Source of the DNA: Callorhinchus milii
Lineage: Eukaryota
NCBI RefSeq assembly: GCF_018977255.1
Contig: NW_024704743.1
Coordinates: 11,720,001-11,784,000 of the forward strand
Reading direction: 5' to 3'
DNA: 64,000 bases
Of the stretch, positions 36,990 through 62,647 are shown piece after piece. The translations under genes were made by a program, and so were the position numbers. The first letter of the stretch is position 1; each line of letters starts with the position of its first letter. The notes beneath the pieces were generated by a model, which did no database searches, was not told the origin of the DNA, and saw only the letters and a program-made list of their open reading frames with translations.

Positions 36990-37064
36990 CACTGCACCTT
37001 CTCACTTCCAGTTTCTGCTTCAATTTGAGGCAGAAGAGGATTTGATACAGGAAAAGACTTAAGG
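36990..37064 (+). other. Candidate non-coding first exon of the NUB1-like gene (start approximate)
   Basis: Unique sequence ending in the consensus donor AGG|GTGAGT (intron begins 37065). Splicing to 38208 places an in-frame TAA (37060-37062) upstream of ATG 38221. Confidence 0.5.
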
Positions 37065-37094
37065 GTGAGTGAAAGAGACTGCCAACAACTTGCA

Positions 37095-37690
37095 TAGCTC
37101 GACTATCCCAACGCCTTGCTCGTCAGCCTTCCCAACTCTTCCCTCCACAAGGCACAGCTCATCCAGAACTCTGAGGCTCGTGTCCTCTCCCACACCCGGC
37201 TCTGTGACCCAATCACACGCAGCCTTGCCCAGCTCCACTGGCTCCCCGTGCCTCAGAGGATCAAGTTAAATATTCTCGTCCCCCCTTACCTTCAAGGCCC
37301 TCCATGGTCTTGCCCCCTTCTACTTCTCCGACCTCCTAACCCCTTATCAACCTGCCCGCTCCCTCTGCTCAGCAGGCTCTGGTCTGCTCCACGTCCTCCG
37401 TCTGACCTGCCCCACCATCAGCGCTTGGGCCATCAACCTCTCTGCCCCCACTCTCTGGAGCTCTATTCCACATTCCCTTTGGGTCGTTCTCTCCCTTGCC
37501 TCCTTCAAGGCACACCTCAAGACTCTCCTCTTCGACTGTAACTTTGCCACCCTCTCTGCCCTCCACCCTGCCTGATCTCGACTCCGCCCCCCAGCCCCGC
37601 TTGGGTCCTAATCCCCTCACCGTTCAGCGTTTTGGGACGTCCTCCCGATGTGAAAGGCGCTTTACAAATGTAATTTAGTTTTGTATTGTA
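37095..37690 (+). mobile_element. L2 3' fragment
   Basis: QLIQNSEARVL...LAQLHWLPVPQRIK; tail gggacgtcctcccgatgtgaaaggcgc. Confidence 0.88.
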
Positions 37691-38220
37691 TAGCGTCTCT
37701 CATGTGGAGTAGTGTGACAGAGGTGGAGGAAAGCGGTCTTGGTTAGGGACCAGATGTGCGGTAGAAAGGACGATTGAAGATTGAACCTGACACCTACATT
37801 AAGTACAGGTTCAATAAGTCTGAGGTTGGAGCCGCAGGTGAGAAGACATTTATGGGAGCCAAAAAGTATTCGGGCTATTCGGACCGTCATATCTGGGCTG
37901 GCTCTTTAAAAGAGCAACCCACCTAGTCCTATAATTGAGACTTTACACCAAGGTCCCTTCTATACCTGCTCAGGTGGATATTAAAGGTACTGTGTTACTA
38001 TTTCTGCTCGGCAATGCCCTGGATAATATCAATCATTTAACTTTATGGCTATTTGTGGAACATTGCTATGCACAAATTGGCTGCCACATTCGTCCACAAA
38101 ACACAAAGTGACTCCACTTACGCAAGTAAATATCCAATTTGAAATGTTCTGATGATATGATAAGGTGGTGTATCCGATGCAAAGATCATTATTTGGATCC
38201 TTTTTAGTCAAGAGAAGAAG

Positions 38221-38313
38221 ATGACTGATCGTACAATGGAAGTGAATGAAGGATCGGCATGCGGCAGCTCAAAATCTGTGACCATTTTCATTAATTCACC
38301 AAATGAATGTCAG
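38221..38313 (+). CDS. NUB1-like paralog, first coding exon (acceptor at 38208, ATG at 38221)
   Basis: tttttag acceptor; MTDRTMEVNEGSACGSSKSVTIFINSPNECQ, with VTIFI fitting UBL strand 1 (NUB1 ATIEVF); CAG|GTAAGA donor in phase 0, matching the next exon. Confidence 0.7.
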
Positions 38314-38344
38314 GTAAGAGTGTTGACCAGCGAAGTCTAAGCTC

Positions 38345-38988: not shown

Positions 38989-39059
38989 GGTGCTGGAAAC
39001 AAAACCAAGCATACTGTGCAAATTAACCTGACTGCTACTGGGAAAGATCTGAGAGCAAG
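38989..39059 (+). CDS. NUB1-like paralog exon, UBL domain, phase 0 to 2
   Basis: tttcag acceptor; GAGNKTKHTVQINLTATGKDLRA(R), cf. human NUB1 LETRLHITGRELRSK; AG|GTAGAG donor. Confidence 0.85.
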
Positions 39060-39653: not shown

Positions 39654-39724
39654 AGTCTCGGATTTGGTTAAGATAGAACAAGAATGCATTGAGCTGATAT
39701 ACTGCGGCAGGAATCTTGATATGG
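39654..39724 (+). CDS. NUB1-like paralog exon, UBL domain, phase 2 to 1
   Basis: ttttcag acceptor; VSDLVKIEQECIELIYCGRNLDM, with the ubiquitin-fold motif LIYCGRNL (ubiquitin LIFAGKQL); G|GTAAGT donor. Confidence 0.88.
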
Positions 39725-41760: not shown

Positions 41761-41892
41761 AAAAACCTCTGTCGGAACAGAAAATAGTCGACAAAGCAAG
41801 AGTTCGGGTGAAAAAGATAGACATGAAAGCAAGAGAGGAGGAGCGCTGCCTGTCCAGGATAAAGAAAGGAGCAGATCTACTGGTTCAGCGAG
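41761..41892 (+). CDS. NUB1-like paralog exon, end of UBL plus linker, phase 1 to 1
   Basis: ttttctcag acceptor; (E)KPLSEQKIVDKARVRVKKIDMKAREEERCLSRIKKGADLLVQR, cf. human KTLEEQGV...IQRTKRGLEILAKR; G|GTCAGT donor. Confidence 0.88.
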
Positions 41893-42333: not shown

Positions 42334-42413
42334 GTGAAAATTTTGAAAAGACCTATTTAAAAATTACAAATGAGAAATTGGAAGTTGTTGAGGTCCCAGA
42401 AAAAGAGCGGGTG
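42334..42413 (+). CDS. NUB1-like paralog exon, homologous to 12688-12776, phase 1 to 0
   Basis: tttccag acceptor; (G)ENFEKTYLKITNEKLEVVEVPEKERV vs (G)ENTDLSNAPYLEVADQKGRPIPIPAVEKK; GTG|GTGAGT donor. Confidence 0.88.
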
Positions 42414-42545
42414 GTGAGTATTGACCCGAACTTCAGTTGAAATTGTTTTTTTTTTGTGCCTCCAGATCCGTACAAGATCGCTTAAGCTGAAAAATCAGCC
42501 CCTCATTCTCTCCCACTCATTGCTCTGACTCTGAGGTGACAGTGT

Positions 42546-43484
42546 GCCGGGCTGACACACACTCTGAGCCGGGCTGACGCACACTCTGAGCCGGGCTGAC
42601 GCACACACTGAGCCGGGCTGACGCACACTCTGAGCCGGGCTGACGCACACTCTGAGCCGGGCTGACGCACACACTGAGCCGGGCTGACGCACACTCTGAG
42701 CCGGGCTGACGCACACTCTGAGCCGGGCTGACGCACACACTGAGCCGGGCTGACGCACACACTGAGCCGGGCTGACGCACACTCTAAGCCGGGCTGACGC
42801 ACACTCTGAGCCGGGCTGACGCACACTCTGAGCCGGGCTGACGCACACTCTGAGCCGGGCTGACGCACACTCTGAGCCGGGCTGACGCACACCTGAGCCG
42901 GGCTGACGCACACTCTGAGCCGGGCTGACGCACACTCTGAGCCGGGCTGACGCACACTCTGAGCCGGGCTGACGCACACTCTGAGCCGGGCTGACGCACA
43001 CTCTGAGCCGGGCTGACGCACACTCTGAGCCGGGCTGACGCACACTCTGAGCCGGGCTGACGCACACTCTGAGCCGGGCTGACGCACACTCTGAGCCGGG
43101 CTGACGCACACTCTGAGCCGGGCTGACGCACACTCTGAGCCGGGCTGACGCACACTCTGAGCCGGGCTGACGCACACTCTGAGCCGGGCTGACGCACACT
43201 CTGAGCCGGGCTGACGCACACTCTGAGCCGGGCTGACGCACACTCTGAGCCGGGCTGACGCACACTCTGAGCCGGCCTGACGCACACTCTGAGCCGGCCT
43301 GACGCACACTCTGAGCCGGCCTGACGCACACTCTGAGCCGGCCTGACGCACACTCTGAGCCGGCCTGACGCACACACGGAGCCGGCCTGACGCACACACG
43401 GAGCCGGCCTGACGCACACACGGAGCCGGCCTGACGCACACACGGAGCCGGCCTGACGCACACACGGAGCCGGCCTGACGCACA
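42546..43484. repeat. 22-bp minisatellite, about 43 units, consensus CTGAGCCGGGCTGACGCACACT
   Basis: Read directly; the 22-aa periodicity of the overlapping ORFs (66 nt = 3 units) confirms the unit length. Confidence 0.97.
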
Positions 43485-43782
43485 TAAACTTGCCCAAGAT
43501 TTCGCCCCGTCCAGGAATCGAACCTGGTTCCTCTTGCTTGTAAAGAGAGAGTTCTAATTCTACGTGACGGAACTCCACAACTTTGCAGTCATTCTGTGGG
43601 ACGCCTATCTCTGTGGGGAGACATTCTTGATGTGATAGATGCTTTGCCAAATGCAAGAATTATAAATATTGTAACAACAACAATTTGCATTTATATAGCG
43701 CCCTTCCTGCCAGTCGGGGTCTCGGAGCACTTATAGCTGCCATTTCTCTTTAATTGATTGTTTTTGTTTGGTTCTTGCACAG

Positions 43783-43895
43783 GCCATTTTAACAGCCTTG
43801 GTTCTGCACGAAACAGCCCGAGATTACATGAAGCCGGAGAAGCAGGACTGGACCAGAGCCCTGAAATTTTTGAAGTTTGCAGAGGAAGCATTTGG
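43783..43895 (+). CDS. NUB1-like paralog exon, homologous to 13939-14045, phase 0 to 2
   Basis: ttgcacag acceptor; AILTALVLHETARDYMKPEKQDWTRALKFLKFAEEAF(G); GG|GTAATA donor. Confidence 0.9.
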
Positions 43896-43896
43896 G

Positions 43897-44234
43897 TAAT
43901 AATAATAATAATATAATAATAATCCTTGCATTTGATATAGCGCTTTTCACGTCAGGAGGACGTCCCAAAGCGCTTCACAGAACACACTGTAAAGTGAATT
44001 GACTGTATATTTGTGGGCGAACGCGGCAGCCAATTGCGCACAGCAGTGTCCCACAAACAGTCGTAGATTGAAAATGACCAATTTTTTATTATTGTTTTTT
44101 GTTTTTGGAGGGATTATTATTAGGCTCTGTGTGGAGTAAGGAAACTTGCCCAAGGTTTCGCCCTCTGCCTGGAATTGAACCCTGGTCTCTCGCTTGCAAA
44201 GCGAGTGCTCTAACCACTGAGCTACAGGACTCCA
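43897..44234 (-). mobile_element. Young full-length tRNA(Ala)-like SINE abutting a splice donor
   Basis: Reverse complement of 61141-61469; (TAA)n tail begins inside the donor GTAATA; gtaat recurs at 44236-44240. Confidence 0.92.
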
Positions 44235-44248
44235 TGTAATGTTGGAGC

Positions 44249-45060
44249 CATAGGAACATAAGAACAGGAATAGACCATTCAGCCCTTCAATCCTGTTCCA
44301 CCATTTAACTAGATCATGGCTGATCTGTACCTCAACTAATCCTTTCAATTCCAATTTCTCACTTTCTCCGCATGTCCCTTAATATCCTGACCCACCAAAG
44401 ATCTATCAACCTCACTATTGAAGGTGTGGATGGATCCAGCATCCATGGCCTTTTGGGGGAGAGAATTCCAGATTCCTACCACCCTTTGAGTGAAAAAAAT
44501 GCTTCCTGATTTCACTCTTAAATAGTATGGTTCTAATTTTAAGACTATTCCCCCTTGTTTTGGATTCCCGAACCAGAGGAAATAGATTCTCTGTACCTAT
44601 CAAATCCCTTTATCATCTTAAATACCTCAATCAAATCACCCCTCAACCTTCTAAGCTCAAGGGGATACAATCCAAGTTTACACAGCCTTTCCTCGTAACT
44701 TAACCCCTTTAGGCCTGGTAACATTCTAGTGAACCTGTGCTGCACCCCCTCCAGAACCAATATATCTTTCCTGAGGTGTGATACCCAAACCTGAACGCAG
44801 TCTTCAGATGTGATCTGACTAACGCTCTATACAACTGAATCATTTCTTCCCTTTTGTATTCCAGGCCCCTTGAGGTAAAGGCCAACATTCCATTCACCTT
44901 TTTGATTACTTTTTGCACTTGGGAACTAGTTTTTAGTGATTTGTGGATATGGACACCCAAATCTCTTTGCTCCTCCACAGTTCTTAATTTCTCCCCATCA
45001 AAAAAAATTCTGCTATATCTTTTTTCGGTCCATAGTGGATGAGCTCACAGTTTCCCTACA
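44249..45060 (-). mobile_element. CR1 3' fragment, near-identical to 9550-10290
   Basis: Same translated segments (VLEGVQHRFTRMLPGLKGLSYEERLCKLGLYPLELRRLRGDLIEVFK). Confidence 0.93.
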
Positions 45061-45533
45061 TGTGATAAGGTGCTACATCAAATGCAAGGATTATCATTAT
45101 TATCACCTTTATAATTATTATAAACAAGGCTCCATCTGCCTGTTCATGTCAATATTAAAGATCCCAAGGCACTACTCCAAAAGAGAAGGGAGTTTCTCTT
45201 GGTGTCCTGGCCAACAATCCCACAGATAAACTTGGTCGTCAACTTCACGGCTGTTTGTGGGATGTGGCTGTGCACAAATTGGCTCATGTGTTCACCAATA
45301 AAATGCACAATCACTACGGTTTACAGTAAATCCTGTGAAGCACTTTGGGACGTCCGACCGACGTTCAACGCATACTGTATGGATTGTTATGATTACTATT
45401 ATTATTGTGTAAAACATGCAGTCAGATCGCAGGCAGAAGAAGCTGTCCCTTCAGACAGTAGCAGGAAGATTGGCCATGTGTTGGTTGGACAGGTTCTATT
45501 AGGTTTCTTTTCACGCATTGCCTCTTTTCACAG

Positions 45534-45720
45534 TGAGTGCAATCAGGACTATATCAAATACATCGATAATAATGGAGTCCTCAATCTAGACGTACTTTGG
45601 TGTTACATGAAGCTGGAGAAACAACCTTCCCTTGAAGAAGCAAACAAAAGATTGGAAAATGCTGAGATGTACCTGAAAAATACCTTTGAGAAAAACACGG
45701 AGTCAGATCAGGAACATGAG
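45534..45720 (+). CDS. NUB1-like paralog exon, homologous to 17088-17274 (same 187-nt length), phase 2 to 0
   Basis: ECNQDYIKYIDNNGVLNLDVLWCYMKLEKQPSLEEANKRLENAEMYLKNTFEKNTESDQEHE; 20/62 identities to the NUB1 exon by hand count; GAG|GTCAGT donor. Confidence 0.93.
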
Positions 45721-45834
45721 GTCAGTTATTGTTATGAGCAAGGAGGCATTGACTCGCTTAGTTCGGTGGCTTCTGCACAATATTGGGGCTGGAAAAGTGC
45801 TAATTTAAGTGCCGCATGAAGAATGTTATATAAA

Positions 45835-46195
45835 TAATAATCCTTGCATTTGATACAGCACCTTATCACGTTGTTGAAACATCTCAAAGCGCTTCACAGA
45901 ATATCATGTAAAATGGGTTGACTGCATATTTTGTGGATGAAGTGCAGCAGCCAATTGCACAAAGCTGTCCCAACAAATAGTCGTGGATTGGGTGACCAAA
46001 TTATAATTTAGAGTAGGGATTATTGCCCCCAATGAGATCTGTCAATCGAGTAACAACCAGGTTCCTAATTACTGCTAGATAAACATAAGCGTGTGGAATA
46101 AGGAAACTTGTCTAAGGTTTTGCCGCACCTGGGAATCAAACCTGGGTCCTCTCGCTTATGAGACAAGTGCTCTGAGCATTATGCTGCAGGATTCC
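45835..46195 (-). mobile_element. tRNA-derived SINE (older)
   Basis: aataatccttgcatttgata tail; gtggaataaggaaacttg body. Confidence 0.82.
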
Positions 46196-47009
46196 GTAAA
46201 TGCAAGTTGTTGTTGTCAGGCCAGCTTGAGCATAAAGGTGACTTCAAAGCTGGGTGCTGTCTCGATCCTCTAGTGAACTAATCATTGGGCAAACAAAAGG
46301 CTCTTCAAAAAGAGACATCTCTGAGGGGACCTTATAGAGGTGTATACGATTTTAATGGGTTTGAGAAAGTAAACCCAGAACAATACTTTTGGATGTGCTG
46401 AGGCATCAGAACAGATACCAGGAAGTGTTATTTTACCCAGAAGTTCATTAACAACTGGAATGGGGTTATCAGGAAGGGTGGTTGAGGCCAGAATACTGGG
46501 ACCCATTTAAGATACTGTAATGGGAGGAATGTGAGCATGGATATCAAATGAGCCAAAGGCCTTCTTCATCCAAACCATTCTTGGGATAAATTGGGCTTTA
46601 GCTTTGTTGTTCATAAATTGACTGCCTACAAAATTTCACAGTTCCTAAACTTGTCAGCAATTACCAATGCAGCATTTTGAGACATTTTGACATTAGTGCC
46701 GCTGTTTCAAATGCCAGAGTAATTTATTATATTATAAAAGTGTCTCCTCCTGGGACCCTCAATTTTGCTGCACTTCAAGAGACTGGCTCTGACCTGAGAT
46801 CAACTCAAAATTCCAGCTTGACTAACATCAGGTCTAATGCATGAGAATCACTTTATGCCCCAACCTGTCTTTTCAAAGGCACTATTAATCCGTACAAACG
46901 TTTATTCAACTTTACAGTCTCCCTTAGATGTCAGTTTTGCTCAATAGTTAGCACTCTCACCTCTGAATCAGAAGGTTGTGGGTTCAAGCCCTACGTCGGT
47001 ACTTCAGCC

Positions 47010-48268
47010 CTAAACACAGAGACGGCGCTTGTCAAACTCACAAATGACGTCCTCTTTCTCTATGACTAGGGCTCCCTCTGCCTCCTGGTCCTGGACCTCT
47101 CGGCCACGTTTGACACATTTAACCACGACATCCTTATCCACTGCATCTCCTTCCTCATCTACTTCAGTGGGACCGCATGAGCCTGATTCGAGTCCAACCT
47201 AACAAACTGCCTTCACTTCAACGGTTTCCCTCCCACCCCACCTGGTCACTTGTGGTGTACTCCAGGGCTGCATCCTTGCCCCCCTCCTCTTCCTCATCTA
47301 TATGCTCCCTCTTGGCGATGTCATCCGCAGACATGGGGTAAACTTCCACACGTTTGCAGATGACACACAAATCTACTTCTCTTCCTCCAGCTGCGAATCC
47401 AGGTCCGCCGATGTTCTCTCTGCTTGTCTGGCGGACATCAGGGCCTGGATAAACGAAAATTTCCTGCAGCTGAATGTGGACAAGACGGAAGCCACACTCA
47501 TTTGCTCCAGTCAACATCTTCTATTCTGTGCCTCTGACCTCCTCAATCTCCCCGGCCTATCCCTCAGACTTACCGAACCAGTGCGCAACCTAGGCATCAG
47601 ATCTTCCCCACATCCGGTCCCTGACCAGCCCCACCTTGCTCCACTTCCTCACATTGCCCACCTCCGACCATACCTAACCCCAGACGCAGCAGAAGCACTC
47701 GTCCATGCGATCGTCACCTCCTGGCTCAACTTTTCAAATACCCTCTCCCCAGCTCCACCATGCCCAGGATCCAGCGGATCCAAAACTCCGTCGCCTGCAT
47801 ACTCATCCGCACTAAACTCCGTACCCCCCATCATACCAATTCCAGCCAGGCTTCACTGGCTCCCTATCGCTGAACATATCGATTTCAAGATCCTCACATT
47901 TGTTTTCAAATCCCTTTATACCCTGGCACCTCCCTCCCTCTACAACCTGTTTCCCCCCCACCCCATCCCACAATCCACTGCCTCCACTCGACTGGCTCTG
48001 GTTTTCTGCATGTCCCTTGCGCCCTCCGTTCCACCATTGGTGGCTGCACTTTCAGCCACTACGCCCCAAAACTCTGGAACACTCTCCCTCTATCCCTTCG
48101 CCTTGCCCCTTCTTTCCCCATCTTCAGGTCAAGCCTGAAGACCTTCCTATTCGACTGTGCCTACAGTCACCTCCCCCTCCCCCGGCTTCGCATCATGCTC
48201 CGCCCCTGTCAAGCTCTCTGGAACGCTACCCTGTGTGAGGGGCGCTATACAAATGTAAATTGTTGTTA
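47010..48268 (+). mobile_element. L2 RT and 3' fragment inserted into a Deu-SINE
   Basis: [29 protein letters not shown] head at 46930-47010 and remainder at 48270-48590. Confidence 0.9.
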
Positions 48269-48656
48269 AGCTCAGTCGAGGCTGACACTCCAGCTGGGGA
48301 GAATGCTGCATTGTCAGAGATGCCGTCCTTTGGATGAGACATTAAAGCCTGTTTTGGCGGACATTAACACTACCATGGCGCTATTCAAAAGGAGAAGGAA
48401 ATTTCTCTGGTGTACAGACCAACAATCCCCCAAATAATTTAGTCATTCACTTGATGAATGTTTGTAGGATATTGCAGTGTGCAAATTGCCTGCCACGTTT
48501 GTCTGCAAAAAAAATACATGTCACTACACTTTACAGGAAATCCTGCAAAACGTTTTGAGTCATCCACCCAAGGGTCTATATCAAATGCATGTATAATTTG
48601 AATTATATTTTTGCTTGACTGTTTTACTCTCTCAAATTATTTCCCTTTTCAAGCAG

Positions 48657-48764
48657 GAAAACAGTGTGAGAAAGAAGATACTGTTCTTGCAAGTGCACAT
48701 TCTCTGGGGAGTGCTGTTCTCCTACAGGAGCATGAAGAAGGAAGCTCTTGATAATTTCCATAAG
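48657..48764 (+). CDS. NUB1-like paralog exon, homologous to 19393-19500 (same 108-nt length), phase 0 to 0
   Basis: AAGCAG tandem acceptor; ENSVRKKILFLQVHILWGVLFSYRSMKKEALDNFHK; donor GTACAG identical to the NUB1 counterpart. Confidence 0.9.
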
Positions 48765-50190
48765 GTACAGGGGGTCAACAACAGCAACTTGCATTTGTAT
48801 AGCGCCCTTCACACGGGTAGCATTTCAATGCGCTTATCAATTTAATCAGTCTATCATTTGCGTAGAAAAAAGGCTTCCTACGTTAGGACTGAATTTAGGA
48901 ATTTTACAAAATTCTGCACGTTCTTGAATTTTAAGATCAAACAGTTAAAACAACAACAAATTGCATTTGTATGGAACTTTCCAAAGCTCCAGACAATCAA
49001 GAATGTGCACACAAGCTGGGGGTTGGGATCAAGGGGAAGGAGGGCAGGGAGGATGCGAGTTGGAGGGTGACCTAAGATGCAATCGAAGAGGAAGGTCTTG
49101 ATACAGGCCTTCAAGGAGGCAAGGGAAGGACGAGGCAAAGGAACTGTGGGATGGAGTTCGAAAGGGTGGGGGCAGAGAGGCTGAAGGCCCTACTGCTTAT
49201 GGTGGGGCCAGGTGGGAGACATGGAGCAGGCTGGAGCCCCCTGACTGGAGGGATGGACAGGTCACATAGGAGGAGCAAGGCTGTGGATGGCTTTGAAAGC
49301 GATATAGCGCCTTTCACGTGGATAGCGTCTCAATGTACTTATCAATTCAGTCAGTCAACCAATTGTGTGTAAAAAAGTTTCCTAAATTAGGACTGTATTT
49401 AAGAATTTTACAAAATTCTGCACGTTCTTCAATTTTAAGATTAAATACTTACATAGGGTAATGTGGCACGGAAAACAGGCCATTCAGTCCACTTAGGTGT
49501 TCATACTCCACACTAGGCCCTCATCACTCCTATTCCTCTCTGCAGTATTACAGAACAATTTACAATACAATTTATACTTGCATAAACACCTTTCAGGTCG
49601 GGAGGACATCCCAGGGCACTTAGTAGGGGCTAGGTCCCAGAGCTGATGTTTTCTCTTAAATAGTCTTACAGGCTAAGACCATGTGGAATTTCAGGCTTGT
49701 AAGGGCCTCTAAATCTATGATAAGGCCACAAACCAAACATTACTTTAAAACTATCTCTACCGAATTCATATATCTGTCCACTTCATGGTGAATCAGGATT
49801 TTTTTTTGTTTCTCTTTTGCATGGAATATCCACAAGATACCACTATGGTCAACATTCATTGTATTAGCTTCAGATCATTATTTCAATGAGCCTTCAGCCT
49901 ATCTGTCCTCACTCTCTGTCACCCCATTCCAGAGTCCCTCCAACTCGCTCCTTCCCCTTGTTCAAGATCCATTGCAAGACTTGCCTCTCTGACCGCCTTT
50001 TGATCATTTTGCCTCTCACCACCCCCTTGGCTTTGACCCCAGCTTGCGTGCCAAGCCAGTATTGTTAAGCGTCTTGGGACACCCTCCCAAAGTGAAAGGC
50101 ACTGTATAAATGGAAATGGTATTGCATTGTATCATCCTCTGCTATCACAACAATAAACAACAAGTTGCCTTTATAAAGCGCCCTTTGCAT

Positions 50191-50732: not shown

Positions 50733-51140
50733 TTATTAATATTGTCTTTAGGACTTTCAGCTTACAGTCCAGACTGCCATTCAAACACAATACTTTCTTT
50801 CCCTCTAACACTCTGTCTCATCCTCTTTGTGTCTTTAACTCGTACCTCTTGAACTGTGCCTATGGCCACCTCCCTCCCCCATTTCCCTTGCTCAGGATAA
50901 AACCCCATCCCTGTGAAGTGCTCCAAGACATGAAGGACCCTGTATACATGCAAGTTGTTGTTGGTGTTGCATTGTTTGGATCAGACATTAAACCAATCTG
51001 CCTGTTCAGCTGGATGTTAAAGATCCTGTGGCATTGTTCGAAAGGGATTTCTCCCAAGATCCTGGCCAACAATCCACCAGATAAAATGCATCACTCAGTC
51101 CATGCCTATTTATGGGACAGTGCTGTGAACTTGGGACATT

Positions 51141-51463
51141 TGGAGTCCTGTAGCTCAGTGGTTAGAGCACCGCTTTGCAAGTGAGAGACCTGAGTTCAAT
51201 TCCAGGCAGAGGGTGAAACCTTGGCCAAGTTTCCTTACTCCACACAGAGCCTAATAATAATCCCTCCAAAACAAAAACAATAATAAATTGGTCATTTTCA
51301 ATCAACGACTGTTTGTGGGACATTGCTGTGCGCAATTGGCTGCCGCGTTCGTCCACAAATATACAGTCAATTCACTTTACAGTGTGTTCTGTGAAGCGCT
51401 TTGGGACGTCCTCCCGACGTGAAAAGCGCTATATCATATGCAAGGATTATTATTATTATTATT
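51141..51463 (+). mobile_element. Young full-length tRNA(Ala)-like SINE
   Basis: A-box TAGCTCAGTGG, ttTGCaa loop, B-box GAGTTCAATTCC, L2-like 3' end, (TTA)n tail. Confidence 0.93.
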
Positions 51464-51568
51464 TGCCTACAAAGTGCCCAGTCGCAGTAAAAATCCTGTG
51501 AAATGATTTGAGGCGTCCTACCTCCTGCCCAATGTGAAAAGCACCGTATCAAACGTAAGGATTATTGT

Positions 51569-51677
51569 TCATAAAGAAAAATACTGCAGATGCTGGAAAT
51601 CTGAAAAACAAAGTAGAAGTCGCTGAGAACACTCAGCAGGTCAGGCTGCCTGAATATCTCCAGCGACTTCTGCTTTT
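51569..51677. repeat. Short palindromic repeat with 14-bp flanking direct repeats; related copy at 31405-31525
   Basis: aaatactgcagatgctggaaatctgaaa...agaagtcgctg...cagcgacttct; gtaaggattattgt at 51555-51568 and 51678-51691. Confidence 0.8.
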
Positions 51678-51702
51678 GTAAGGATTATTGTCGTTAACAC
51701 AG

Positions 51703-51855
51703 GCAGAGAAGTTGTGTGACGAGCTTCGGTTGGATGACTGCGACTTTGCCCAACTCAGGCATGGAGGGCTGACACGTCAGGAGGCTCGGCTGGGTTTGCG
51801 AGCCTGTGGCGGTGACCTGGGGAAAGCTAGAGAGTTTATTCAGCAAAGGAGACAG
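51703..51855 (+). CDS. NUB1-like paralog exon, UBA1-like, homologous to 20753-20905 (same 153-nt length)
   Basis: AEKLCDELRLDDCDFAQLRHGGLTRQEARLGLRACGGDLGKAREFIQQRRQ; 25/51 identities including QEARLGLRAC; donor GTAACT identical to the NUB1 counterpart. Confidence 0.94.
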
Positions 51856-52927
51856 GTAACTATGTAAATAAGTAAGAGCAAAAATTGGAGCTGAGATCTG
51901 GAGAAAGTGAGACAGAGTCTGACACCAACCGTGGACCCAGCACCAGAAAGGTAAACCATTGCACCAAGCTCAGAATCTGTGGTGGTTCTCGGTAGTCCAG
52001 TTCCTGGGTCAGGCAGGTCTGCAGTAATCCAGGCATTGCTGATGACAGCCATTGAGATGGGATGGGTAGACTGGAAGGATGAGGTAAAATGGGTCGAAGG
52101 CCCTTGTTCATTCGATCCGATCCTATGTTCTTGTGAATTGGCTGTTCCCACTGTTTGTGAAAAGCAAGTCATGCAAGCATGCCAGAAGGGAATGTGAATC
52201 AGTGTTTACACACACACAACTGCCAGCTCCGTGCACCACGACCCGGCTGGGAACACAATGTAATTCTCTTTTGCAGGTGATGCAGGCAAACTGCGGTAGG
52301 TCTTACACCAGCTCTGGACCATCGGTGACCTTTTGTAGCACACTGTGCAGGAACTCAATTTGTTCCCAGTGAGAGGTTGGCCTCTGACCATCCTCCCCTC
52401 CCTCACCCACCCAACTACAATAAAATACAATACAATTTGCATTTAATATTGCACCTTGCACGTCAGGGAGGACATTCACAGTGCTTGGCAATGCTGAGCT
52501 GGGAATGGGGTGCAGTGGCGAGGGGAGTGATTGAAATTTCGGTCAGAGATAGGAACATAGGAATTGCTAGATGAAAAAAGACAGAGGTCCATCTCATTCA
52601 CCTTCTACCTGCTGTTATGCTACAATACCTTTGATGGAGGGGAGAGAGCAAAGAGGAAAGAGGAGACTTGATAAGGAGGCCAACCAGTCTCACTCCCCCG
52701 CTCTTTACCCACAGCCCTGCAATTTTTTTCCTTTTCAAGTATATATCCAGTTCCCTTTTGAAAGTTATTATTGAATCTGCTTCCACCACCGTTTCAGGCA
52801 GTGCATTCCAGATCGTAACAACTCTCCGAGTAAAATAATTTTTCCTCATCTCCCCTGGTTATTTTACTAATCTCTAGAAAGCACATCCCTTTCAATTAGG
52901 TAATGCTGAGTTTCTGGTCTTAAACAG

Positions 52928-53047
52928 CGAATTGAACAGCAAAGACTGGATTCTTACAAAGGCAAAAGAGACCGTACTGAGGTGATGGACGTGGGTGATT
53001 CAGAACATACAGCATCTCAGACCTTGCAACCTAACCAGGCCACACAG
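52928..53047 (+). CDS. NUB1-like paralog exon, degenerate UBA2, phase 0 to 0
   Basis: taaacag acceptor; RIEQQRLDSYKGKRDRTEVMDVGDSEHTASQTLQPNQATQ, where VMDVGDSEHTASQTL aligns with LMARGFSENAATKAF; CAG|GTAAAC donor. Confidence 0.75.
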
Positions 53048-53169
53048 GTAAACAGAGCGCAAATACTTTAACATGATGAGGCTCCCGCTGCACCACTTCT
53101 AGCCCCCACAGCCTCCTGCAGGCTGACAACGCCCCACTAAACCCGCCGCCTGTCATCTCAGTGTGCACA

Positions 53170-56100
53170 TTTTGGCTGCCTCCCCGACCCGAGCTGGCTC
53201 TCCCTCAAAATGCCCCCCTCCCTGCAACTCTCCCGCACTGTCCGGCTCTCTCTCCGCCCTCCCCTCCTCCTATCTCTACTTGACCCCCCCACTGCCTCCC
53301 TCTGCTCCAGCCTGGGAATCCTCCGCTGGGCTCATCATGGCACTCAGCGTTGGCTGTCCAGCAGCAGTCACACCGACTGCCTCATTCCCCACTACCGCCC
53401 CAAGTCACCCCGGGGGCTAACCTCTCCTTCCTCATCCGCATCCCCACCCTCCCTGCCAACCAATCCACTACCCCCTCCCATCCCTGCCAACTGTCCACTG
53501 TGCATTAGCCTTCAAAACATCCGCTCTATCTCTAACAAGACCCTGGCCATCAATGAACTCATCCTCGATGAGAACACTGACATTATGGCCCTCACTGAAA
53601 CCTGGAGCACCCCAGGTGACACCTTCCCCTTCACTGAGGCCACACCACCTGACTACACCTACCACCATGCCCCACGCCCCAACCATCGTGGCGGCAGGGT
53701 GGCCCTCATCTCCAGGGTGTCACTTGCCCTATCCCGCTACTCCACCGGTTCATTACCCCCTTTCAAAACCTTACTCTCTGCCCTCCCTCCCACCTCTCTC
53801 CAAAAATCCTCTTACTTTACCGCTCCCCAAAATCCTCCCCCACCTTCATCTCTGACATCTCCATCCTCCTTGCTTCTGCTCCGACCGCCTCATCATCCTA
53901 GGCAACTTCAACCTCCATTTCACCCCTTCCTGCTCCATCTTCCTCAGACTTCTCCTTTCTCAACCTTTCCCTCCACATCCACTCTGCTACCCACACCCAA
54001 GGTCACCCGCTTGACCTGGTGATCACCCAGGGCCTCAGTGTCTCAGATGTCACGATCACTGACAAGGTCATCTCTGACCACCATTTCATCTCTCTCAACT
54101 CCCATATTCCTCTCCCCACTGCCTCCAAACCTACCACCATCTTCTACCGCCCGTGGAAGAAGATCTCCCTGCAGTTCCTCTCCGCTGCCCTGGAATCCTC
54201 TGAACTCCTCCCCCTCTGGCCCACCTCTCGCACCAACCCACTCACTGTGCTCACTCTTCTCCACAGCACCGTCTCCACCACACTCGATGCCCTTGCCCCC
54301 CTCACCTCCTGAACTGCTTCCTATTCCTGATCCTCACCCTGGTTCACCAGCCGCCTCCGCTCTCTTAAGAGTCAGGTGTGGGCTGCCGAATGCACTTGGC
54401 TCAAATACGGCCTTACGGTCCACCGCCGTATCTGGTTGGACCTCATCAAAACCTACCATTCCACTCTCGCCTCGGCCAAATCATCCTTCTATTCCAGGTT
54501 AATCCTGGAGGCGAAGGGCAACCCCAGGCTCCTGTTCTCCATCATCAACCGGCTCCTCCGCCCACCCCACTACGCCTCGCAGATTCTTTCCTCTGACTCT
54601 CACTGCGAGAAAATGCTGGACTTCCTCAACAACAAAATCAAGGGAATCCGCTCAGCTGCCACTGCCCTCCCTACTTCCACCCCCTCCCTACCCCCACCCC
54701 ACACAATTACCCATCCAACAATTACCCATCCTTCCTTCCACACCTTTGAACCTGTCAACCTCTCCTCTGTCTTCACCACCATAACCTCCATGAAGCCCAC
54801 CACCTGCTCCCTGGACCCCATCCCCACCCTTCTCCTTAAATCTCAGCTCTGCCTCCTTGCCCCACTACCTGCCGATATCATTAACCTCTCCCTGTCATCT
54901 GGCACTGTTCCTTCCCCCCTCAAAACAGCCATTATCACCCCCACAATGAAGAAACCTTCCCTTGACCCATCACAGCTATCTAGCTACCGGCCCATCTCCA
55001 ACCTCCCTTTCCTATCCAAGGTCCTTGAGAGAGCCATTGTCTCCCAGCTTCACTCTTTCCTCTCCTCCCACTCCCTCCATGAATCCCTCCAACTGCTTTG
55101 GTCAAGGTCACAAACGACATCCTGACCATGTGCGACCAGGGCTCCCTCTGCCTCCTCGTCCTCCTCGACTTCTCCGCTGCTTTTGACACCGTGGACCACT
55201 CAATCCTCCTCCACCACCTCTCCTCCCACCTCAAACTTCAAGGCTCTGTCCTTGACTGGTTCAAGTCCTACCTTTCATACTGTCTCCACTTCGTCGCAGC
55301 AAACGGCTTCTCCTCCAGCCCCTGCACCGTCTCGTGTTGTGTCCCTCAGGGCTCTGTCCTCGGTCCCCTCCTCTTCACCCTCTACATGCTCCCCCTTGGT
55401 GACATCATCCACAGACATGGGGTAAATTTCCGCATGTATGCGGATGACACCCAACTCTATCTCTCTGCCTCCACCCTCAACTCCAGGACTACTGGCATCC
55501 TGACAGACTACCTGTCTGACATCAAGTCCTGGACGAGGGACAACTTTCTCCAACTCAACGTCAGCAAGACCGAGGCCCTCCTGATTGGCTCGCGCAAGCA
55601 TCGCCGCACCTTGGGCGCTGGCAGCATCAGCCTCCATGGCTGCACACTCAACCTCACTAAGCCAGTCAGGAACCTGGGTGTCTTGTTTGACCCTGAACTG
55701 TCCTTTCTCTCTCACATCCGTGCCATGACCGGCACTGCCTACCATCACCTCCGCAACATTGCCAGACTCCACCACTGCCTCAACCCTCAGGCTGCCAAAA
55801 TCCTCACCCATGCATTCGTCACACCAAGGCTGAATTACCGGAACTCCTCCTCATTGGCCTTCTCAACTCTTCCCTTCACAAGCTGCAGACCATCCAAAAC
55901 TCTGCAGTTCGTTCTCGTGTTCTCTTGCATACCAGGCTCTGTGACCCCATCACTCCCAACCTCGCCCGACTCCACTGGCTCCCCATCCCGCAGAGGATCG
56001 AGTTCAAGATCCTTGTCCTCACTTTCAAGGCCATCCATGGCCTTGCCCCCTCCTACCTCTCTGACCTGCTGACTCCCTACCAACCTGCCCGATCCCTCCG

Positions 56101-56421
56101 TTCAGCGGACTCCAGCCTGCTCTATGCCTCCTGCCCGATTCGCCCTACCATCGGTGGCCGGGCTTTCAGCCTCGCTGCCCCCACATTCTGGCACTCCATC
56201 CCATGGTTCCTTTGCCTCGCTTCCTCCCTTGCTGCCTTCAAGGCCGGTCTCAGGACCTTCTCTTCGATTGTGCCTTTGGTCCCCCTCACACCTCTCTGTC
56301 TTACCTCACTCCTACACCGCCCTCCCCCATGCTCAGGCCCCAATACCTGACTGTTCAGCGCCTTGGGACGTCCTTCTGATATGAAGGACGCTCTACAAAT
56401 GTAATTTTGTTGTTGTTGTTG
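53170..56421 (+). mobile_element. Near-full-length L2 LINE ORF2 (APE and RT), frameshifted
   Basis: SLQNIRSI...[67 protein letters not shown]; (TTG)n tail. Confidence 0.95.
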
Positions 56422-56699
56422 ATGAGTGTTAGAGAGTTCGCAGTCTAGGCTGCTGATCCATTGCAGCACTGGAGGTGGGGTGGGTCGGAGAGGAGTGCTG
56501 CATTGTCAGAGGTTCCCGTCCTTTGTATGAGATGTCAGCCTGGTGCAGTGGTAGCACTCTCACCTCAGAAGGTTGTGGGTTCAAGTTCCACGTCGGGACT
56601 TGGAATCTTGTAGTCTAAACACTGGGGGAGGGGTTACATTGTCGGAGGTACCGTCCTTTGGATGAGATGTTAAACCGAGGTCTCATCTGCTTGTTCTAT

Positions 56700-59600
56700 C
56701 CCCCTATTCCTCTGACTGTTTCTCCTCCGTTGAGCACCTCACCCTCTAACATCCCTCCTATCTCTCCCTCAAAATACTGCTAGTTTACCGTCCACCCTAA
56801 GCTCCTGGGTCCATCCTCACTGATATCTCCTCACTCCTCTCATCCCTGTCCTTCTGCACTGAACATCTCTTCATAATGGGTGATTTCAACCTCCACCTAA
56901 ACTCCCCTGCACCACATCCTCGGATTTCACTGGCCTGCTCTCCCTAAACATCACCCTCCACATCGACTCGCCGACCCACAACCGTGGCCACCCCCTCGAC
57001 CTCGTCATCACACACGGCCTTGACATTTCCGACCTGTCAATCATGGACAAGCCATCTCAGACCACTTTCTCATCTCCCTCTCCTCCTGCAACCCCCTCTC
57101 CTCTTCCAAACCATCCATCATTTTTTTCTGCCCCTGGAAAAAGCTTCCCCCTGAGTCCCTCACAAATGCCCTCTGTTCCTCGGACCTCCTCTCTCTGGCC
57201 CTCCACCCGCTGCAATCCTGATACAGCCATCAAGCTGCTGAATGACCATCTCTCCATAACCTTCAATTCCCTGAAATTCAGGGTTGTTTCCAAACCCACC
57301 CGCTCCCCCTGGTAAAACAGTCACCTCCGCTCACTCAAAACACAAACCCGGATGTTTGAGCGCAGATGGCAGAAATCTGGCCTCACGATCCACCGCCAGC
57401 TGTGGCTCAAGCACCTCCGCACCCACCGCCTCTCCCTTTCACAGGGCAAATCTGGCTTTTACTCCAACCTTTTACTCTATTCTCAAATCAAACACCAAGT
57501 GCAAAGAGGTCCTAGATTTCTTCACCTCAAACATTGGCTGTATTGTCCTCCCTCCCCAACCACCCCCATGCCCAGACAACAACAAAATTACGTTTGTATA
57601 GCGCCTTTCACGTCAGGAGGCTGTCCCAAAGCGCTGGGCAGTCAGTGTTTCGGATCTGAGCTTGTGATCGGGATTGGGAAGGGTGGAGGGCAACAACAAC
57701 TTGGACTTATATAGTGCCCTCCACGCCGGACAGTGTCTCAGAGCGCTACACAGTAACAGATCCCGGGGCCGAGACGGGAGGGAAAGTGACCAAAGGCGTG
57801 GTTGAAAAGAAAGGTCTTCAGCCAACATCTGAAAATAGGAAGAGAGGGGGCGAGGCGAAGGGAGTGAGGAAGGGAGATCCAGAGCCTTGGGGCGTAATGG
57901 CTGAAGGCACAGCTGCCGATGGTGGAGTGGAGGATTTGGGGGACAAGGAGGAGGCCAGACCTGGTGGAGTGAAGGGAACGGGCACTGTTGTGAGGAAAGA
58001 GGAGGTCAGAGAGATAGGGGGGTGCAGAGGAGTGGAGGAATTTGAAGACAAGGGTAAGGATCTTGAAGTCGATCCTTTCTGGGATAGACAGCCAGTGCAG
58101 TCTGGCAAGAACTGCGGTTATCGGGGAGCGGAGTTTGGTGCGGATAAAAATGCAGGTGGCAAAATGCAACCTCCTTGGCCCCCTTCTCTTTCTGATCTAT
58201 ATGCTCTCTCTTGGGGATGTCATCCGCAGACATGGGGTACACTTCCGCATGTATGCGGACGACACCCAACTCTATTTTTCCACCTCACATTGCGACCCCC
58301 AGTCCCCTGATGTTCTGTCAGCCTGCCTGGCGGTGGGTGACAAGAGGCAGGGCAGGAAGCAGGGAGATCAAAAGCATGGTCGAAGAGGAGGGTCTTGAAA
58401 TGGGTCTTGAAGGAGGCAAGAGAGGGGATGAGGTGAAAGGACTGCAGGTGGAGTTCCATAGGGTGGGGGCAGTATGGCTGAAGGTCCGCCTGCCAATGGT
58501 GGGGCGGGCGAGGTGGGGGACGTGAAGCAGGCTGAAGCCCGCTGAATGGAGGGACCAGGCAAGATGGTAGGGGCTTAGGAGGTTGCACAGGTAGGGAGCA
58601 AGGCCATGGAGAGCTTTGAAGGTGAGGACCAGGATCTTGAACTGTATCCTCTGTGTGATAGGAAGCCAATGAGTCGGTGAGGATGGGGGTGATAAGGTCA
58701 TGAAGCCTGGTGCGAGAGAGGACAAGTGCTGCAGAGTTCTGGATGATCTGCAGCCTATGGAGGGAAGAGTTGGGGGGGCTGACAAGCAAGGAGTTTGCAT
58801 AGTCAAGCCCCAATGTTATGAATGTTTGTATGAGGCTTTGGGCGGCCTGCGATGTGAGACAGTGTCGGAGCCAGGTGATGTTTGGATGTGGGGGGCAGGC
58901 AGAGTACGTCATGACACAGATTTGGGGTAGAAAGGATAATTGAGAGTCAAACAAGATGCTAAAGTTCCAGACTGGCTTAGTAAAGTGGAGTGTGCAACCA
59001 TTGGTGATGCTGTCAGCACCTGAGGTATGGAGGCCCTGACGGGAGCCCATCAGGAGAGCCTCGGTCTTGTTGATGTTCAACTGAAGAAGGTTAGCTCTCA
59101 TTCTGACAGTCATTCTGTCAGAACAGCAGTGGTCCGTCCTGGAGTCAAGAGTGGAGGCAGAGAGATAGAGTTGAGTGTTAGCCCCATACATGTGGAAGTT
59201 GACCCCATGTCTGCATATGATGTCACCAAGAGGGAGCACATAGATATTGAAGATGAGGGCACCAAGGACCGAGCCCTGAGGTATGCCACACGAGACAGTG
59301 GGTGGGGGCTAGAGGAGAAACCGTTTGTGGAGATGGAGGCAGTGTGAGAGGTACGATCTGAACCATTCAAGGACAGAATCATGAAAGTTGAGGCAAGAGG
59401 AGAGGCGGTGGATGAGGATAGGAGGTCAACTGTTGAAGGCAGCAGAGAGGTCAAGGAGGATGAGGAGGCAGAGGGAGCCCTGGTTGCAGATCAACAACAT
59501 GTAATTTGTCACTTTGACCAGGGTTGTTTCTGTGCTGTGGGGGCACGGAAACCCGATTGGAGGGCTTTGTGAAGGGAGAGGAAGGAGCAAAACTGGGAAG

Positions 59601-61590
59601 CAACGACTCATTCCAGGACCTTGGAGAGGAGAGGGATGTTGGAGATGGGGCGGCAGTTTGACCATCCACACCATCTTCTCCCTCCACCACAGCTCCTGTA
59701 ACTCTCCCCTCCTTACACTACTTTGCCCCCAATTTTCCTTCCTTCCTCTCAATCACAATCACCCACATAAAGTTCACCACCTGCTGCCTTGATCCCCTCT
59801 GCACCCAGTTGCTGGTCACTCAACTCCTCTCCCCTCTGTTGGCTGACATAGTCAACCAGTCTCTCTCCTCAGGCTCTGTTCCACTCCCCCTGAAAACCGC
59901 TGTCATCACACCCCTCCTCAAAAAACCCACCCTCGATCCCTCTAATCTCTCACACTATCGTCCCATATCCAACCTGCCCTTCCTTGCTAAAGTCTTGGAA
60001 TGTATTGTTGCAGATCAACTTTGGTCACACCCTCCCTCCACTCTCTCCTCGAGCCCCTGCAGTCTGGTTTTGGCCCTGCCCACAGCACAGAGACAGCGCT
60101 TGTCAAAGTCACAGATTACATTCTCTGTATTTGTGACCAGGGCACCCTCTGCCTCCTCGTCCTCCTGGATCTCTCTGCCGCGTTCGACACAGTCGACCAC
60201 GCCATCCTCCTCCATCGGCTCTCCTCCTTCATCTGCCTTAGCGGGACCAAACTCACATTGTTCGAGTCCTACTTAACCAACCTCCTTCACTTCATCTTGG
60301 CAAATGATTTCTCCTCTCGCCCCCACCCGGTCACCTATGGGGTACCCCAGGGCTCCATCTTTGGCCCTCTTCTTTGCCTTATCTAAATGCTCCCTCTGGG
60401 TGATGTAAACTTCCACATGTTTGGGGATCACACACAAATCTACTTTGCCTCCTCCTGTACCAACTCCAGGTCCGCCGATGTTCTATCAGCTTGTCTGGCA
60501 GACATCAGGGCCTGGATGAGTGTAACCTTCCTGCAGCTGAATGTGGACAAGACGGAATCCTTATTCTTTGGCTTCTGTCAACAACTTCACTCCTGCAGAT
60601 CTAAACTCCTCAACCTCCCTGCGCTCTCCCTCAGAATCACCAAACCAGTGGCAACCTAGGCATCCGGTTCGAGCCCCAGCTGTCCTTCCTCTCTCACATC
60701 TGGCCTCTGATTAGGACCGCCTTCCTCCGCTACATTGTCCGCCTTATGCCAAATGCAGCCGAAATCCCTGTGAATGAGTTTGTCACCTCCCGCCTGGATT
60801 ACTCAAACGCACTCCTCGCCGGTCTCCCCAGCCAAAGGCTCTACTGGCTCCCCATCACCAAACAGATCGACTTCCAGATCCTCATATTCATGTTCAAATC
60901 CGTTCATTCTCTGGCACCTCCCTACCTCTCCGACCTCCTCACTCCCCAATCCACCACCAGGCACCTCCTCTCGACTAGCACCGGCCTCCTGCTCGTCCCT
61001 CGCACCTTCCGCTCCACCATTGGTTTCAGCCACTATGCCCCAAAACTGTGGAACACTCTCCCTCAATCCCTCTGTCTTGACCCCTCTCCCCTTTTTTAAG
61101 TCCCGCCTGAATACTTTGCTTTCCGACTATGGTCATCTCGTGGAGTCCTGTAGCTCAGTGGTTAGAGCACTCACTTTGCAAGCGAGAGACCTGAGTTCAA
61201 TTCCAGGCAGAGGGCGAAACCTTGGGCAAGTTTCCTTACTCCACACGCCTAATAATAATCCCTCCAAAACCAAAACAAACAATAATAAAAAAAATTAGTC
61301 ATTTTCAATCTACGACTGTTTGTGGGACATTGCTGTGCGCAATTGGCTGCCATGTTCGCCCACAAATATACAGTCAATTCACTTTACAGTGTGTTCTGTG
61401 AAGCGCTTTGGGACGTCCTCCCGACGTGAAAAGCGCTATATCATATTCAAGGATTATTATTATTATTATCTCCACCCTTACCCCACCTCCACCAACACCC
61501 CGGCTTGGAGTCAGGCTCCGTCACTGGTTAGTGCTCCGAGACGCTACCCTGCATGGAGGGAGCTATGTAAGTACATTTTGTTGTTGTTGT
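56700..61590. mobile_element. Cluster of L2 fragments in both orientations (about 56700-57580 +, 57580-59660 mostly -, 59660-61590 +)
   Basis: Repeated L2 motifs: [61 protein letters not shown]. Confidence 0.9.
61141..61469 (+). mobile_element. Young full-length tRNA(Ala)-like SINE inserted in an L2 3' UTR
   Basis: tggagtcctgtagctcagtggttagagcactcactttgcaagcgagagacctgagttcaattcc head; (TTA)n tail; atctc on both flanks. Confidence 0.93.
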
Positions 61591-62109
61591 GCTCAATTGG
61601 CTGCCGTGTTTCACATACAAAATACACAGCCAATACACTTTTCAGTATATTCTGTGCTTTGAGACATCTCAACAACGTGATAAGGCGCAATATCAAATGA
61701 AAGGATGATTATTATTATTATATTATTAAACACAGCACTGGAGAAGCTGATGAGCATCAATGGAATTGTGCAGGTTTTGTTTCCAGCACACTGTGAGTTA
61801 ATGGTTGTAAAAAAATGTTTGGGAACAAATGGCTAATTTGTGGCAGTGTGGGAGGAATGTGAGGCAGAATTATCCTGTCATGGCATGAGAACGTCTAACA
61901 CTGAGGAATGAGACCATTTGGCCGATTCATCGGATTCCTTCGCTAGCCCACATACAATGGAGTCCAGTCATGGACTACATCCAATTATTTCATCTCCTGA
62001 GGGAAATTGCTTTTCGAACTCCAGAAGTAATCATTAAACCACGCTCCACAAGCCTATCACTCCCATCCTCATTCGGCTCCACTGGCTCCCCATTCCCGCA
62101 GCGGATTTA

Positions 62110-62454
62110 TTTTATCATTTTGTTAAGATGTCTCACAGCATTTCACAGAATATACCCGTAAAGTGAAATTGACTGTATATTTTGTGCGTGAAACAAGTCA
62201 GTCAATTGCGCACAGCAGTGTCCCACAAACAGCCATGAATTTTTGTTTTTTTTGGAAAAAATTTTTGTAAGTGCTTATTAGCCCCAGAAAGCGATCTGCC
62301 AATCGGCAAAAATCAACCGGGTTCCTACTTACTGACAAGTAAACAGAGGCGTGTGGAGTAAGGAACCTTGCCCAAGATTTCGCCCGGCACAGGAATCAAA
62401 CCCGATTCCTCTCGCTTGCAAGCAATTGCTCTAACCAATACACTACAGGACTCC
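62110..62454 (-). mobile_element. tRNA-derived SINE
   Basis: Ends in ctacaggactcca, the reverse complement of the SINE head. Confidence 0.85.
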
Positions 62455-62526
62455 AGAACTGACATCTATGTACATGAAAACCTGACGCATATTGTGAAAA
62501 GGTGTCTCTTTTATTTCAATGCTCAG

Positions 62527-62647
62527 GTTTGCGGTCAACTCAATGGAACTTCAAGTTCACAAACCACGGAAGCTGCAGATGCACTGATGCTTGTGGGTGC
62601 ACGTGTACAGCCAGTCCTAGCACCCAATCCCACCAACGTGTCCGAAG
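62527..62647 (+). CDS. Probable NUB1-like paralog exon in the position of the UBA3 exon, phase 0 to 1; gene continues beyond the window
   Basis: Unique island between SINEs with polypyrimidine tract plus ctcag acceptor and G|GTAAAT donor. Open frame VCGQLNGTSSSQTTEAADALMLVGARVQPVLAPNPTNVSE(G). Phases match NUB1 exon 27725-27893 but sequence similarity is not recognisable. Confidence 0.6.

Follow-up and report, generated by a model that had tools for sequence, protein, structure and literature searches.

A trimmed tandem paralogue of NUB1 retained in the chimaera Callorhinchus milii and other cartilaginous fishes

Introduction

Is the shorter gene that follows NUB1 in the chimaera Callorhinchus milii a working paralogue, and what might it do? 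The stretch analysed here (the window) comprises 64 kb of the 991-Mb genome (contig NW_024704743.1, positions 11,720,001 to 11,784,000) and holds the 3' part of a full-length NUB1 gene, copy A, followed downstream on the same strand by a second gene, copy B. The analyses below show copy B to be a functional tandem paralogue of NUB1 that dates from early jawed vertebrates, before the chimaera-shark split, and that was kept in cartilaginous fishes. Its most informative feature, common to its orthologues, is that the N-terminal domain and UBA2-UBA3 have been lost.

NUB1 is far older than FAT10, its only well-understood client. In the accessible parts of two sources, FAT10 is reported in mammals only (bioRxiv 10.1101/2024.06.12.598715; PMC6539292), and what NUB1 traps outside mammals is posed as a question in the first of them. 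The comparison of copy B with copy A offers a direct handle for finding other NUB1 clients.

Structure, transcription and annotation of copy B

A sequence-only reading of this locus had assembled 11 exons into one open frame of about 416 codons. Once spliced, these exons, which lie between 38208 and 62647 and all have AG/GT ends, gave an open frame of exactly 416 codons, counted from the ATG at 38221. That reading had left open whether a sound last exon follows beyond 64000; it lies about 0.6 kb past the window (window-equivalent 64597-64760), intact, in the right phase and ending in TAA. The complete copy B has 12 coding exons and encodes a product of 470 amino acids that is letter for letter the same as P0007 (UniProt V9KJH5). 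The features of the two genes, in window coordinates unless marked L009, are as follows.

37012..37064, + strand: putative non-coding 5' exon of copy B, with an in-frame stop and ending at a GT donor; start uncertain; outside the interval (43600-63500) in which run contigs were placed
38208..38313, + strand: coding exon 1 (ATG at 38221), start of the UBL; matches a 159-nucleotide NUB1 exon
38989..39059, + strand: coding exon 2, 71 nucleotides, phase 0-2; UBL
39654..39724, + strand: coding exon 3, 71 nucleotides, phase 2-1; UBL
41761..41892, + strand: coding exon 4, 132 nucleotides, phase 1-1 (183 nucleotides in NUB1); linker helix and final strand of the UBL, where R/K occupy the M154/L156 positions
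42334..42413, + strand: coding exon 5, 80 nucleotides, phase 1-0; beta-strand-trap linker
43783..43895, + strand: coding exon 6, 113 nucleotides, phase 0-2; helical core
45534..45720, + strand: coding exon 7, 187 nucleotides, phase 2-0; core with D198/N199 (human D278/N279)
48657..48764, + strand: coding exon 8, 108 nucleotides, phase 0-0; core
51703..51855, + strand: coding exon 9, 153 nucleotides, phase 0-0; UBA1; absent from models P0001 and P0002
52928..53047, + strand: coding exon 10, 120 nucleotides, phase 0-0; a helix followed by disordered linker; takes the place of the 150- and 93-nucleotide NUB1 exons (UBA2 lost)
62527..62647, + strand: coding exon 11, 121 nucleotides, phase 0-1; disordered linker where NUB1 has its UBA3 exon
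62648..64000 and beyond the window, + strand: last intron, followed by the terminal exon
L009:597-760, + strand: terminal coding exon; C-terminal helices, Y444 (human Y572), stop, tandem AG acceptors
12688..31717, + strand: copy A, full-length NUB1, the 9 final coding exons out of 14; the first 5 lie upstream of the window

Spliced together, the 14 exons of copy A yield P0187 (609 amino acids). As had been proposed, the intron phases of the two genes agree exon by exon, but the number of coding exons differs (12 against 14): copy B has no counterpart of the first coding exon of copy A, its fourth exon measures 132 rather than 183 nucleotides, and three exons instead of four follow the 153-nucleotide exon. 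To the three exons of equal length noted earlier (187, 108 and 153 nucleotides) a fourth of 71 nucleotides can be added, the NUB1 counterpart of which lies upstream of the window; the protein identities given for the first three, 20/62, 8/36 and 25/51, are exact. For the 120-nucleotide exon, alignment suggests an internal deletion in copy B that would have fused the counterparts of the 150- and 93-nucleotide exons of copy A. In a control in which the copy B coding sequence was randomly substituted, 5000 trials at 20% substitution left the frame open once, and 5000 at either 40% or 50% never did.

The introns of the two copies had been thought to carry unrelated repeats; a blastn comparison found the same genome-wide repeat families in both, in both orientations, and no collinear series between them among the 25 longest of 150 matches. 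The copy A intron after exon 12688-12776 begins with GC rather than GT, and the corresponding copy B intron begins with GT.

Four sequencing runs (X1, X4, X6 and X8) were compared with positions 43600-63500; seven run sets in all were guessed to be RNA. The spliced transcript that the sequence-only reading had called for is represented in run X4, guessed to be RNA, by one contig of 1,924 nucleotides, consecutive pieces of which fall on six successive copy B exons at the predicted junctions. Since this contig joins the flanking exons directly, without an extra piece, a hidden exon in the 9.5-kb intron between 53047 and 62527 was rejected for the isoform seen. By subtraction, the contig could hold the whole coding sequence and some 18-30 nucleotides upstream of 38208. 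Among the pieces listed, the X1 contig matched the 187-nucleotide exon alone and no spliced copy B piece was found for run X6, while contigs of the genome-scale run X8 continue from copy B exons into the introns. With its open frame, its spliced contig and its conserved architecture, copy B is not a pseudogene.

Database isoforms of copy B skip the UBA1 exon 51703-51855 (P0001, P0002), use a donor 12 nucleotides beyond 41892, or differ at tandem acceptors (48654/48657 and L009:597/600). Judged by the human NUB1 data, the isoform that lacks UBA1 should be unable to deliver a client.

Copy B had been called hidden, which it is not, because RefSeq (LOC103190493; XP_042188366-72 and XP_007909497; isoforms X1-X5) and UniProt (V9KJH5 and A0A4W3IX42) already model it. 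The elasmobranch orthologue models are named 'NEDD8 ultimate buster 1-like' in 8 species and 'hypothetical' or 'uncharacterized' in 2, and the database names of copy B and its orthologues are automatic only. In the chimaera, RefSeq (P0003-P0006, P0187) gives the plain name 'NEDD8 ultimate buster 1' to the trimmed copy B and '-like' to the full-length copy A; the two labels look swapped, a point in the chimaera annotation that copy B brings to light. In agreement with the earlier supposition, no description of copy B was found in a literature coverage that leaves out most subscription papers and genome-paper supplements, and the available parts of PMC8742441, PMC4453063, 10.64898/2026.09.15.751670 and PMC7226360 do not describe it. 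The gene models are public.

Origin and retention in cartilaginous fishes

Orthologues of copy B occur in 10 sharks and rays (Pristiophorus, Carcharodon, Scyliorhinus, Heterodontus, Rhincodon, Stegostoma, Chiloscyllium, Hypanus, Leucoraja and Rhinoraja). The tree that had been suggested as a check unites the copy B proteins of all 11 species in one clade, with a support of 100 in an untrimmed quick tree and of 100/100 in a trimmed tree with seven fuller rows. In addition, 30 of the 295 stored proteins scored higher with a copy B profile than with a profile of copy A plus bony vertebrate sequences, and all 30 come from these 11 cartilaginous fishes. The homologues sampled were the best 150 of 352 representatives and the best 120 of 238 NUB1 hits, among which no copy B orthologue was found outside the cartilaginous fishes. 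As copy B forms one clade present in the chimaera and in 10 sharks and rays, the duplication predates the chimaera-shark split, which took place roughly 400 million years ago. The proposal of an old duplication kept under selection and encoding a second NUB1-family protein is thus upheld by the spliced contig, the intact last exon, the orthologues in 10 other cartilaginous fishes and the ratio of nonsynonymous (dN) to synonymous (dS) divergence between the two copies, which is about 0.36 over the three exons of equal length (dN 0.60, dS 1.68, the latter close to saturation).

The trimmed tree left out the partial copy B models P0011, P0020, P0021 and P0024 and most bony vertebrate and invertebrate rows, and two of its copy B rows were cut at their C-termini; with its named set of sequences it places copy B inside the jawed vertebrates at 100/99. 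The best trimmed tree groups copies A and B at 50/0, and the approximately unbiased (AU) test rejected neither the grouping of copy B with bony vertebrate NUB1 (p-AU 0.49) nor that of copy A with bony vertebrate NUB1 (p-AU 0.34); the untrimmed quick tree put copy B beside bony vertebrate NUB1 with a Shimodaira-Hasegawa-like approximate likelihood ratio test (SH-aLRT) value of 85. A closer dating of the duplication was abandoned, because the tests rejected no arrangement of the three groups. The tree would allow a duplication before all jawed vertebrates, followed by the loss of one copy in bony vertebrates.

The adjacency of the two copies was itself observed in C. milii alone, and the linkage elsewhere is indirect: they lie on equal-sized contigs in four of the five other species with data for both (Heterodontus, Carcharodon, Rhinoraja and Rhincodon) and on different-sized contigs, apparently from two assemblies, in Chiloscyllium. 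No third NUB1-like locus was found among the best candidates scored in the 991-Mb genome, where all 8 matches of a caecilian NUB1 and all 14 matches of copy B fall at the present locus. The Carcharodon model P0014, of which P0164 is the longer isoform, has a histone domain (Pfam PF00125) at its end and is probably a fused gene model.

Domain architecture and evolutionary rate

Judged by homology, copy B is a member of the NUB1 family and not a canonical NUB1. It is 34% identical to its neighbour over 246 amino acids (E 1e-41) and homologous to the human NUB1 structures from the UBL to the C-terminal helices (E 2e-44, with a second matched stretch to 8usc). The description of the copy as apparently intact holds for its frame and not for its domains. 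The N-terminal domain (human residues 1-72) is gone or reduced to a short remnant in the aligned copy B rows, and Pfam finds three UBA stretches in P0187 and P0018 but at most one in any copy B model, UBA2-UBA3 being lost. Alignment shows that copy B is trimmed to the UBL, the beta-strand-trap linker, the helical core, UBA1 and the C-terminal helices, which is the module that human NUB1 needs. According to the available part of the human NUB1 study (bioRxiv 10.1101/2024.06.12.598715), deletion of residues 1-72 has no effect and deletion of UBA2-3 no major effect on FAT10 degradation, whereas UBA1, the trap linker and D278/N279/Y572 matter (the effect sizes of single mutants lie outside that part), and the UBL contacts the Rpn1 T2 site through M154/L156.

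In the AlphaFold model of copy B (14 sequences; mean predicted local distance difference test score, pLDDT, 74.9), the UBL, the core, UBA1 and the C-terminal helices are confident and the linker at 356-420 is disordered (pLDDT <50). The NUB1-type UBL domain PF18037 was found at E 3e-8 in P0007, where it passes the cut-off, and at E <0.003 in 8 of the 11 copy B models. The UBL fold matches ubiquitin-fold chains, including NUB1's 1wju and 8usc, in a Foldseek search whose listed matches were nearly all short and to ubiquitin-like chains, with none over the core. UBA1, which is 25/51 identical to the copy A exon, forms three helices at pLDDT of about 90; its Pfam UBA score in the chimaera copy B is 14, below the cut-off of 22.4, which is exceeded in 3 of the 11 copy B models.

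A tarsier sequence was used to map the human residue positions, with the PDB alignment as a check. The H240 and D278/N279 positions are kept in all 10 copy B rows that cover them, and the Y572 and L562 positions in all 11. Loss of the F169 anchor was dropped as a diagnostic of copy B, since F is found in two primate rows only and cyclostomes are also gapped there.

Copy B is constrained yet evolves several times faster than NUB1. Between chimaera and sawshark, 74 of 148 core residues are identical in copy B as against 130 of 148 in copy A, and the UBL shows 22/78 against 58/77. The same holds for the UBL of the chimaera compared with those of four sharks (19-24 of 78-80 identical in copy B, 56-58 of 77 in copy A) and for three pairs of sharks (186-209 of 314 against 291-302 of 313).

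Putative promoter and candidate clients

Two immune-type motifs precede the putative first exon of copy B.

36888..36897, + strand: NF-kB-type motif (fits GGGRNWYYCC), lies in unique sequence that precedes the putative first exon; motif match only
36942..36952, + strand: interferon-stimulated response element (ISRE)/IRF-type motif (fits GAAANNGAAAC); motif match only

We take GGGRNWYYCC to be an NF-kB-type and GAAANNGAAAC an ISRE/IRF-type consensus. The ISRE pattern occurs 3 times in the window, as against 0.62 expected, and the combined kB-plus-ISRE pattern 15 times in the 991-Mb genome, once at 1.3 kb upstream of the copy B ATG. For copy A, whose promoter was not located, the 15 kb that precede the first coding exon showed no strict ISRE. 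The copy B motifs are a lead only, their function being predicted. Some of the fourteen other kB-plus-ISRE sites in the genome (L042-L056) may mark inducible promoters, and on the minus strand (about 37001-37013) another motif, which we take to be IRF/ETS-like, overlaps the start of the putative 5' exon. In the available part of PMC5747502, NUB1 is among 62 core vertebrate interferon-stimulated genes. According to the accessible part of PMC8742441, nub1 lies next to a gasdermin gene in both a brachiopod and a limpet, which ties it once more to immune loci.

FAT10 is reported in mammals only and is not known from sharks, and the client of copy B would therefore not be FAT10; it is probably an immune-related ubiquitin-like modifier or another strand-bearing protein. 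A cluster of four di-ubiquitin genes (G000:C8:9849372-9874630; L028-L030, L038) encodes proteins ending in or near LRLRGG. We take these genes to be ISG15-like, and ISRE-like motifs were found in 3 of the 4 loci. Two of the genes extend the C-terminus beyond LRLRGG and carry a short insert in their first domain; LQLRGG is the ending of one gene, whose frame looks interrupted between its two domains. A complex prediction of copy B (100-470) with an ISG15-like protein (48-155) scored 0.01 with alignments not used and is evidence neither way. The ISG15-like proteins are candidates only.

Elsewhere, a tandem array with a 22-nucleotide unit lies at 42546-43484 in a copy B intron (42.7 copies, 98% matches). 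Downstream of copy B, a long degenerate short-period satellite (L009:3600-8250) and an AT-rich block (L009:9550-10000) were noted by eye.

A proposed function and its alternatives

We infer that copy B acts as a beta-strand trap. The reading that we favour, with a probability of about 0.45, is that copy B is an inflammation-inducible minimal trap of this kind that hands its client to the 26S proteasome without ubiquitin. Interferon and NF-kB signals would induce copy B, its trap linker would pair with an exposed beta-strand of a loosely folded client, and its D/N/Y triad would pin a client residue, the client being held unfolded. The UBL would then pass the client, ubiquitin-free, to the 26S proteasome, on which copy B would dock differently or more weakly than NUB1, because the surface of its UBL has changed.

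Several observations weigh against this reading. The canonical hydrophobic M154/L156 centre for the Rpn1 T2 site is not found in copy B: L156 is polar or charged in 7 of the 8 copy B rows with a residue there (hydrophobic in 1/8), whereas all 21 other rows have a hydrophobic residue; R replaces M154 in 3 of 8 rows, and the chimaera copy has R and K at the two positions. The trap-linker position A216 is changed in 10 of 10 copy B rows covering it. Only in the chimaera copy are the channel residues C317/R324 replaced, by T and S; both residues are among the human mutant constructs in the available part of bioRxiv 10.1101/2024.06.12.598715. The chimaera branch is the longest of the near-complete copy B branches (0.87, as against 0.11 for the chimaera copy A). 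As regards induction, the kB motif by itself shows no enrichment in the window (9 occurrences, 14.6 expected), the kB-plus-ISRE pattern was defined after it had been seen at copy B, and a backwards control of the pattern was as frequent genome-wide (17 against 15). The His at the FAT10 H75 position, which belongs to a conserved FAT10 surface (PMC13244463, available part), is absent in 3 of the 3 ISG15-like genes with the first domain translated. Finally, runs X1 and X4 come from one study, and the RNA nature of both is a guess.

The altered UBL face would suit a trap without delivery, an unlikely alternative and the one that survives best. Copy B would then bind a NUB1-type client and not dock on Rpn1, serving as a decoy or holdase that stabilises clients or competes with copy A, and its UBL may serve another partner. 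Human NUB1 without its UBL still binds FAT10 and delivers it poorly (bioRxiv 10.1101/2024.06.12.598715, available part), and in copy B the triad is invariant, while the UBL is the least conserved folded part and L156 is mostly polar beyond the chimaera as well. Furthermore, the copy B models P0011 (skate) and P0021 (bamboo shark) lack the last UBL strand; however, the same segment is missing from the NUB1-type P0023, so that its absence from a model may reflect an ordinary isoform or a gap in the annotation. All three lineages retain the UBL fold together with its I44-equivalent residue, which is I in 7 of 9 rows, V in one and T in one, and M154 is kept in 5 of 8 rows, which would be more in line with delivery.

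Doubtful, too, is a broader proposal, in which cartilaginous fishes divided the roles of NUB1 early on between a conserved housekeeping copy and an interferon/NF-kB-inducible minimal trap for a non-FAT10 client, whose rewired Rpn1 patch would shield or reroute the client instead of feeding the proteasome.

If the promoter motifs are chance, as their post hoc definition would permit, copy B might be a constitutive or tissue-restricted non-immune specialist, for example for NEDD8 or a structural client. We regard this as improbable. By our reading of the alignments, the consensus A(X4)L(X10)L(X3)L for NEDD8 binding (PMC7226360, available part) maps to the C-terminal helices, where copy B keeps the spacing with conservative changes, but NEDD8 fusions are not turned over by human NUB1 in vitro, as far as the available part of bioRxiv 10.1101/2024.06.12.598715 goes, and copy B evolves fast and is preceded, at the position where they would be expected, by two motifs of immune type in unique DNA. 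It is very improbable that copy B is a nearly redundant, weakly constrained duplicate in slow decay, or that the chimaera copy is being lost, since the long branches, the loss of three domains, the chimaera-only changes at C317/R324 and the poor models in some species (P0024, P0020) are opposed by the open frames and shared trimmed architecture of 11 species of chimaeras, sharks and rays, the invariant triad, a core identity of about 50% since the chimaera-shark split, dN below dS and the spliced contig.

Comparison with known systems

Copy B is an annotated lineage-specific paralogue, a gene-family story within a known system and no new kind of system. The lineage has kept the two copies since before the chimaera-shark split, one of them reduced to the experimentally defined minimal module, which is natural support for that module. 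A short NUB1-like protein of Betta splendens (XP_029003744; P0029) also lacks UBA2-UBA3 and keeps the triad, but it nests in teleost NUB1 (SH-aLRT 99) and is therefore not a copy B orthologue; it reflects independent trimming or a faulty model.

Among the closest parallels are the engineered deletions of human NUB1 (delta 1-72 and delta 422-527), of which copy B is the natural counterpart, both combined. In contrast to these constructs, copy B is only 21-50% identical to the neighbouring NUB1, depending on the domain, and the double deletion is not among the human constructs in the available part of bioRxiv 10.1101/2024.06.12.598715. Compared with human NUB1/NUB1L itself (PDB 8usb, 8usc, 8usd and 1wju), copy B is alike in its trap triad, UBA1 and C-terminal helices, and it differs in lacking the N-terminal domain, UBA2 and UBA3, in its shorter linker between UBL and core, in its polar Rpn1-binding face and in its much faster evolution.

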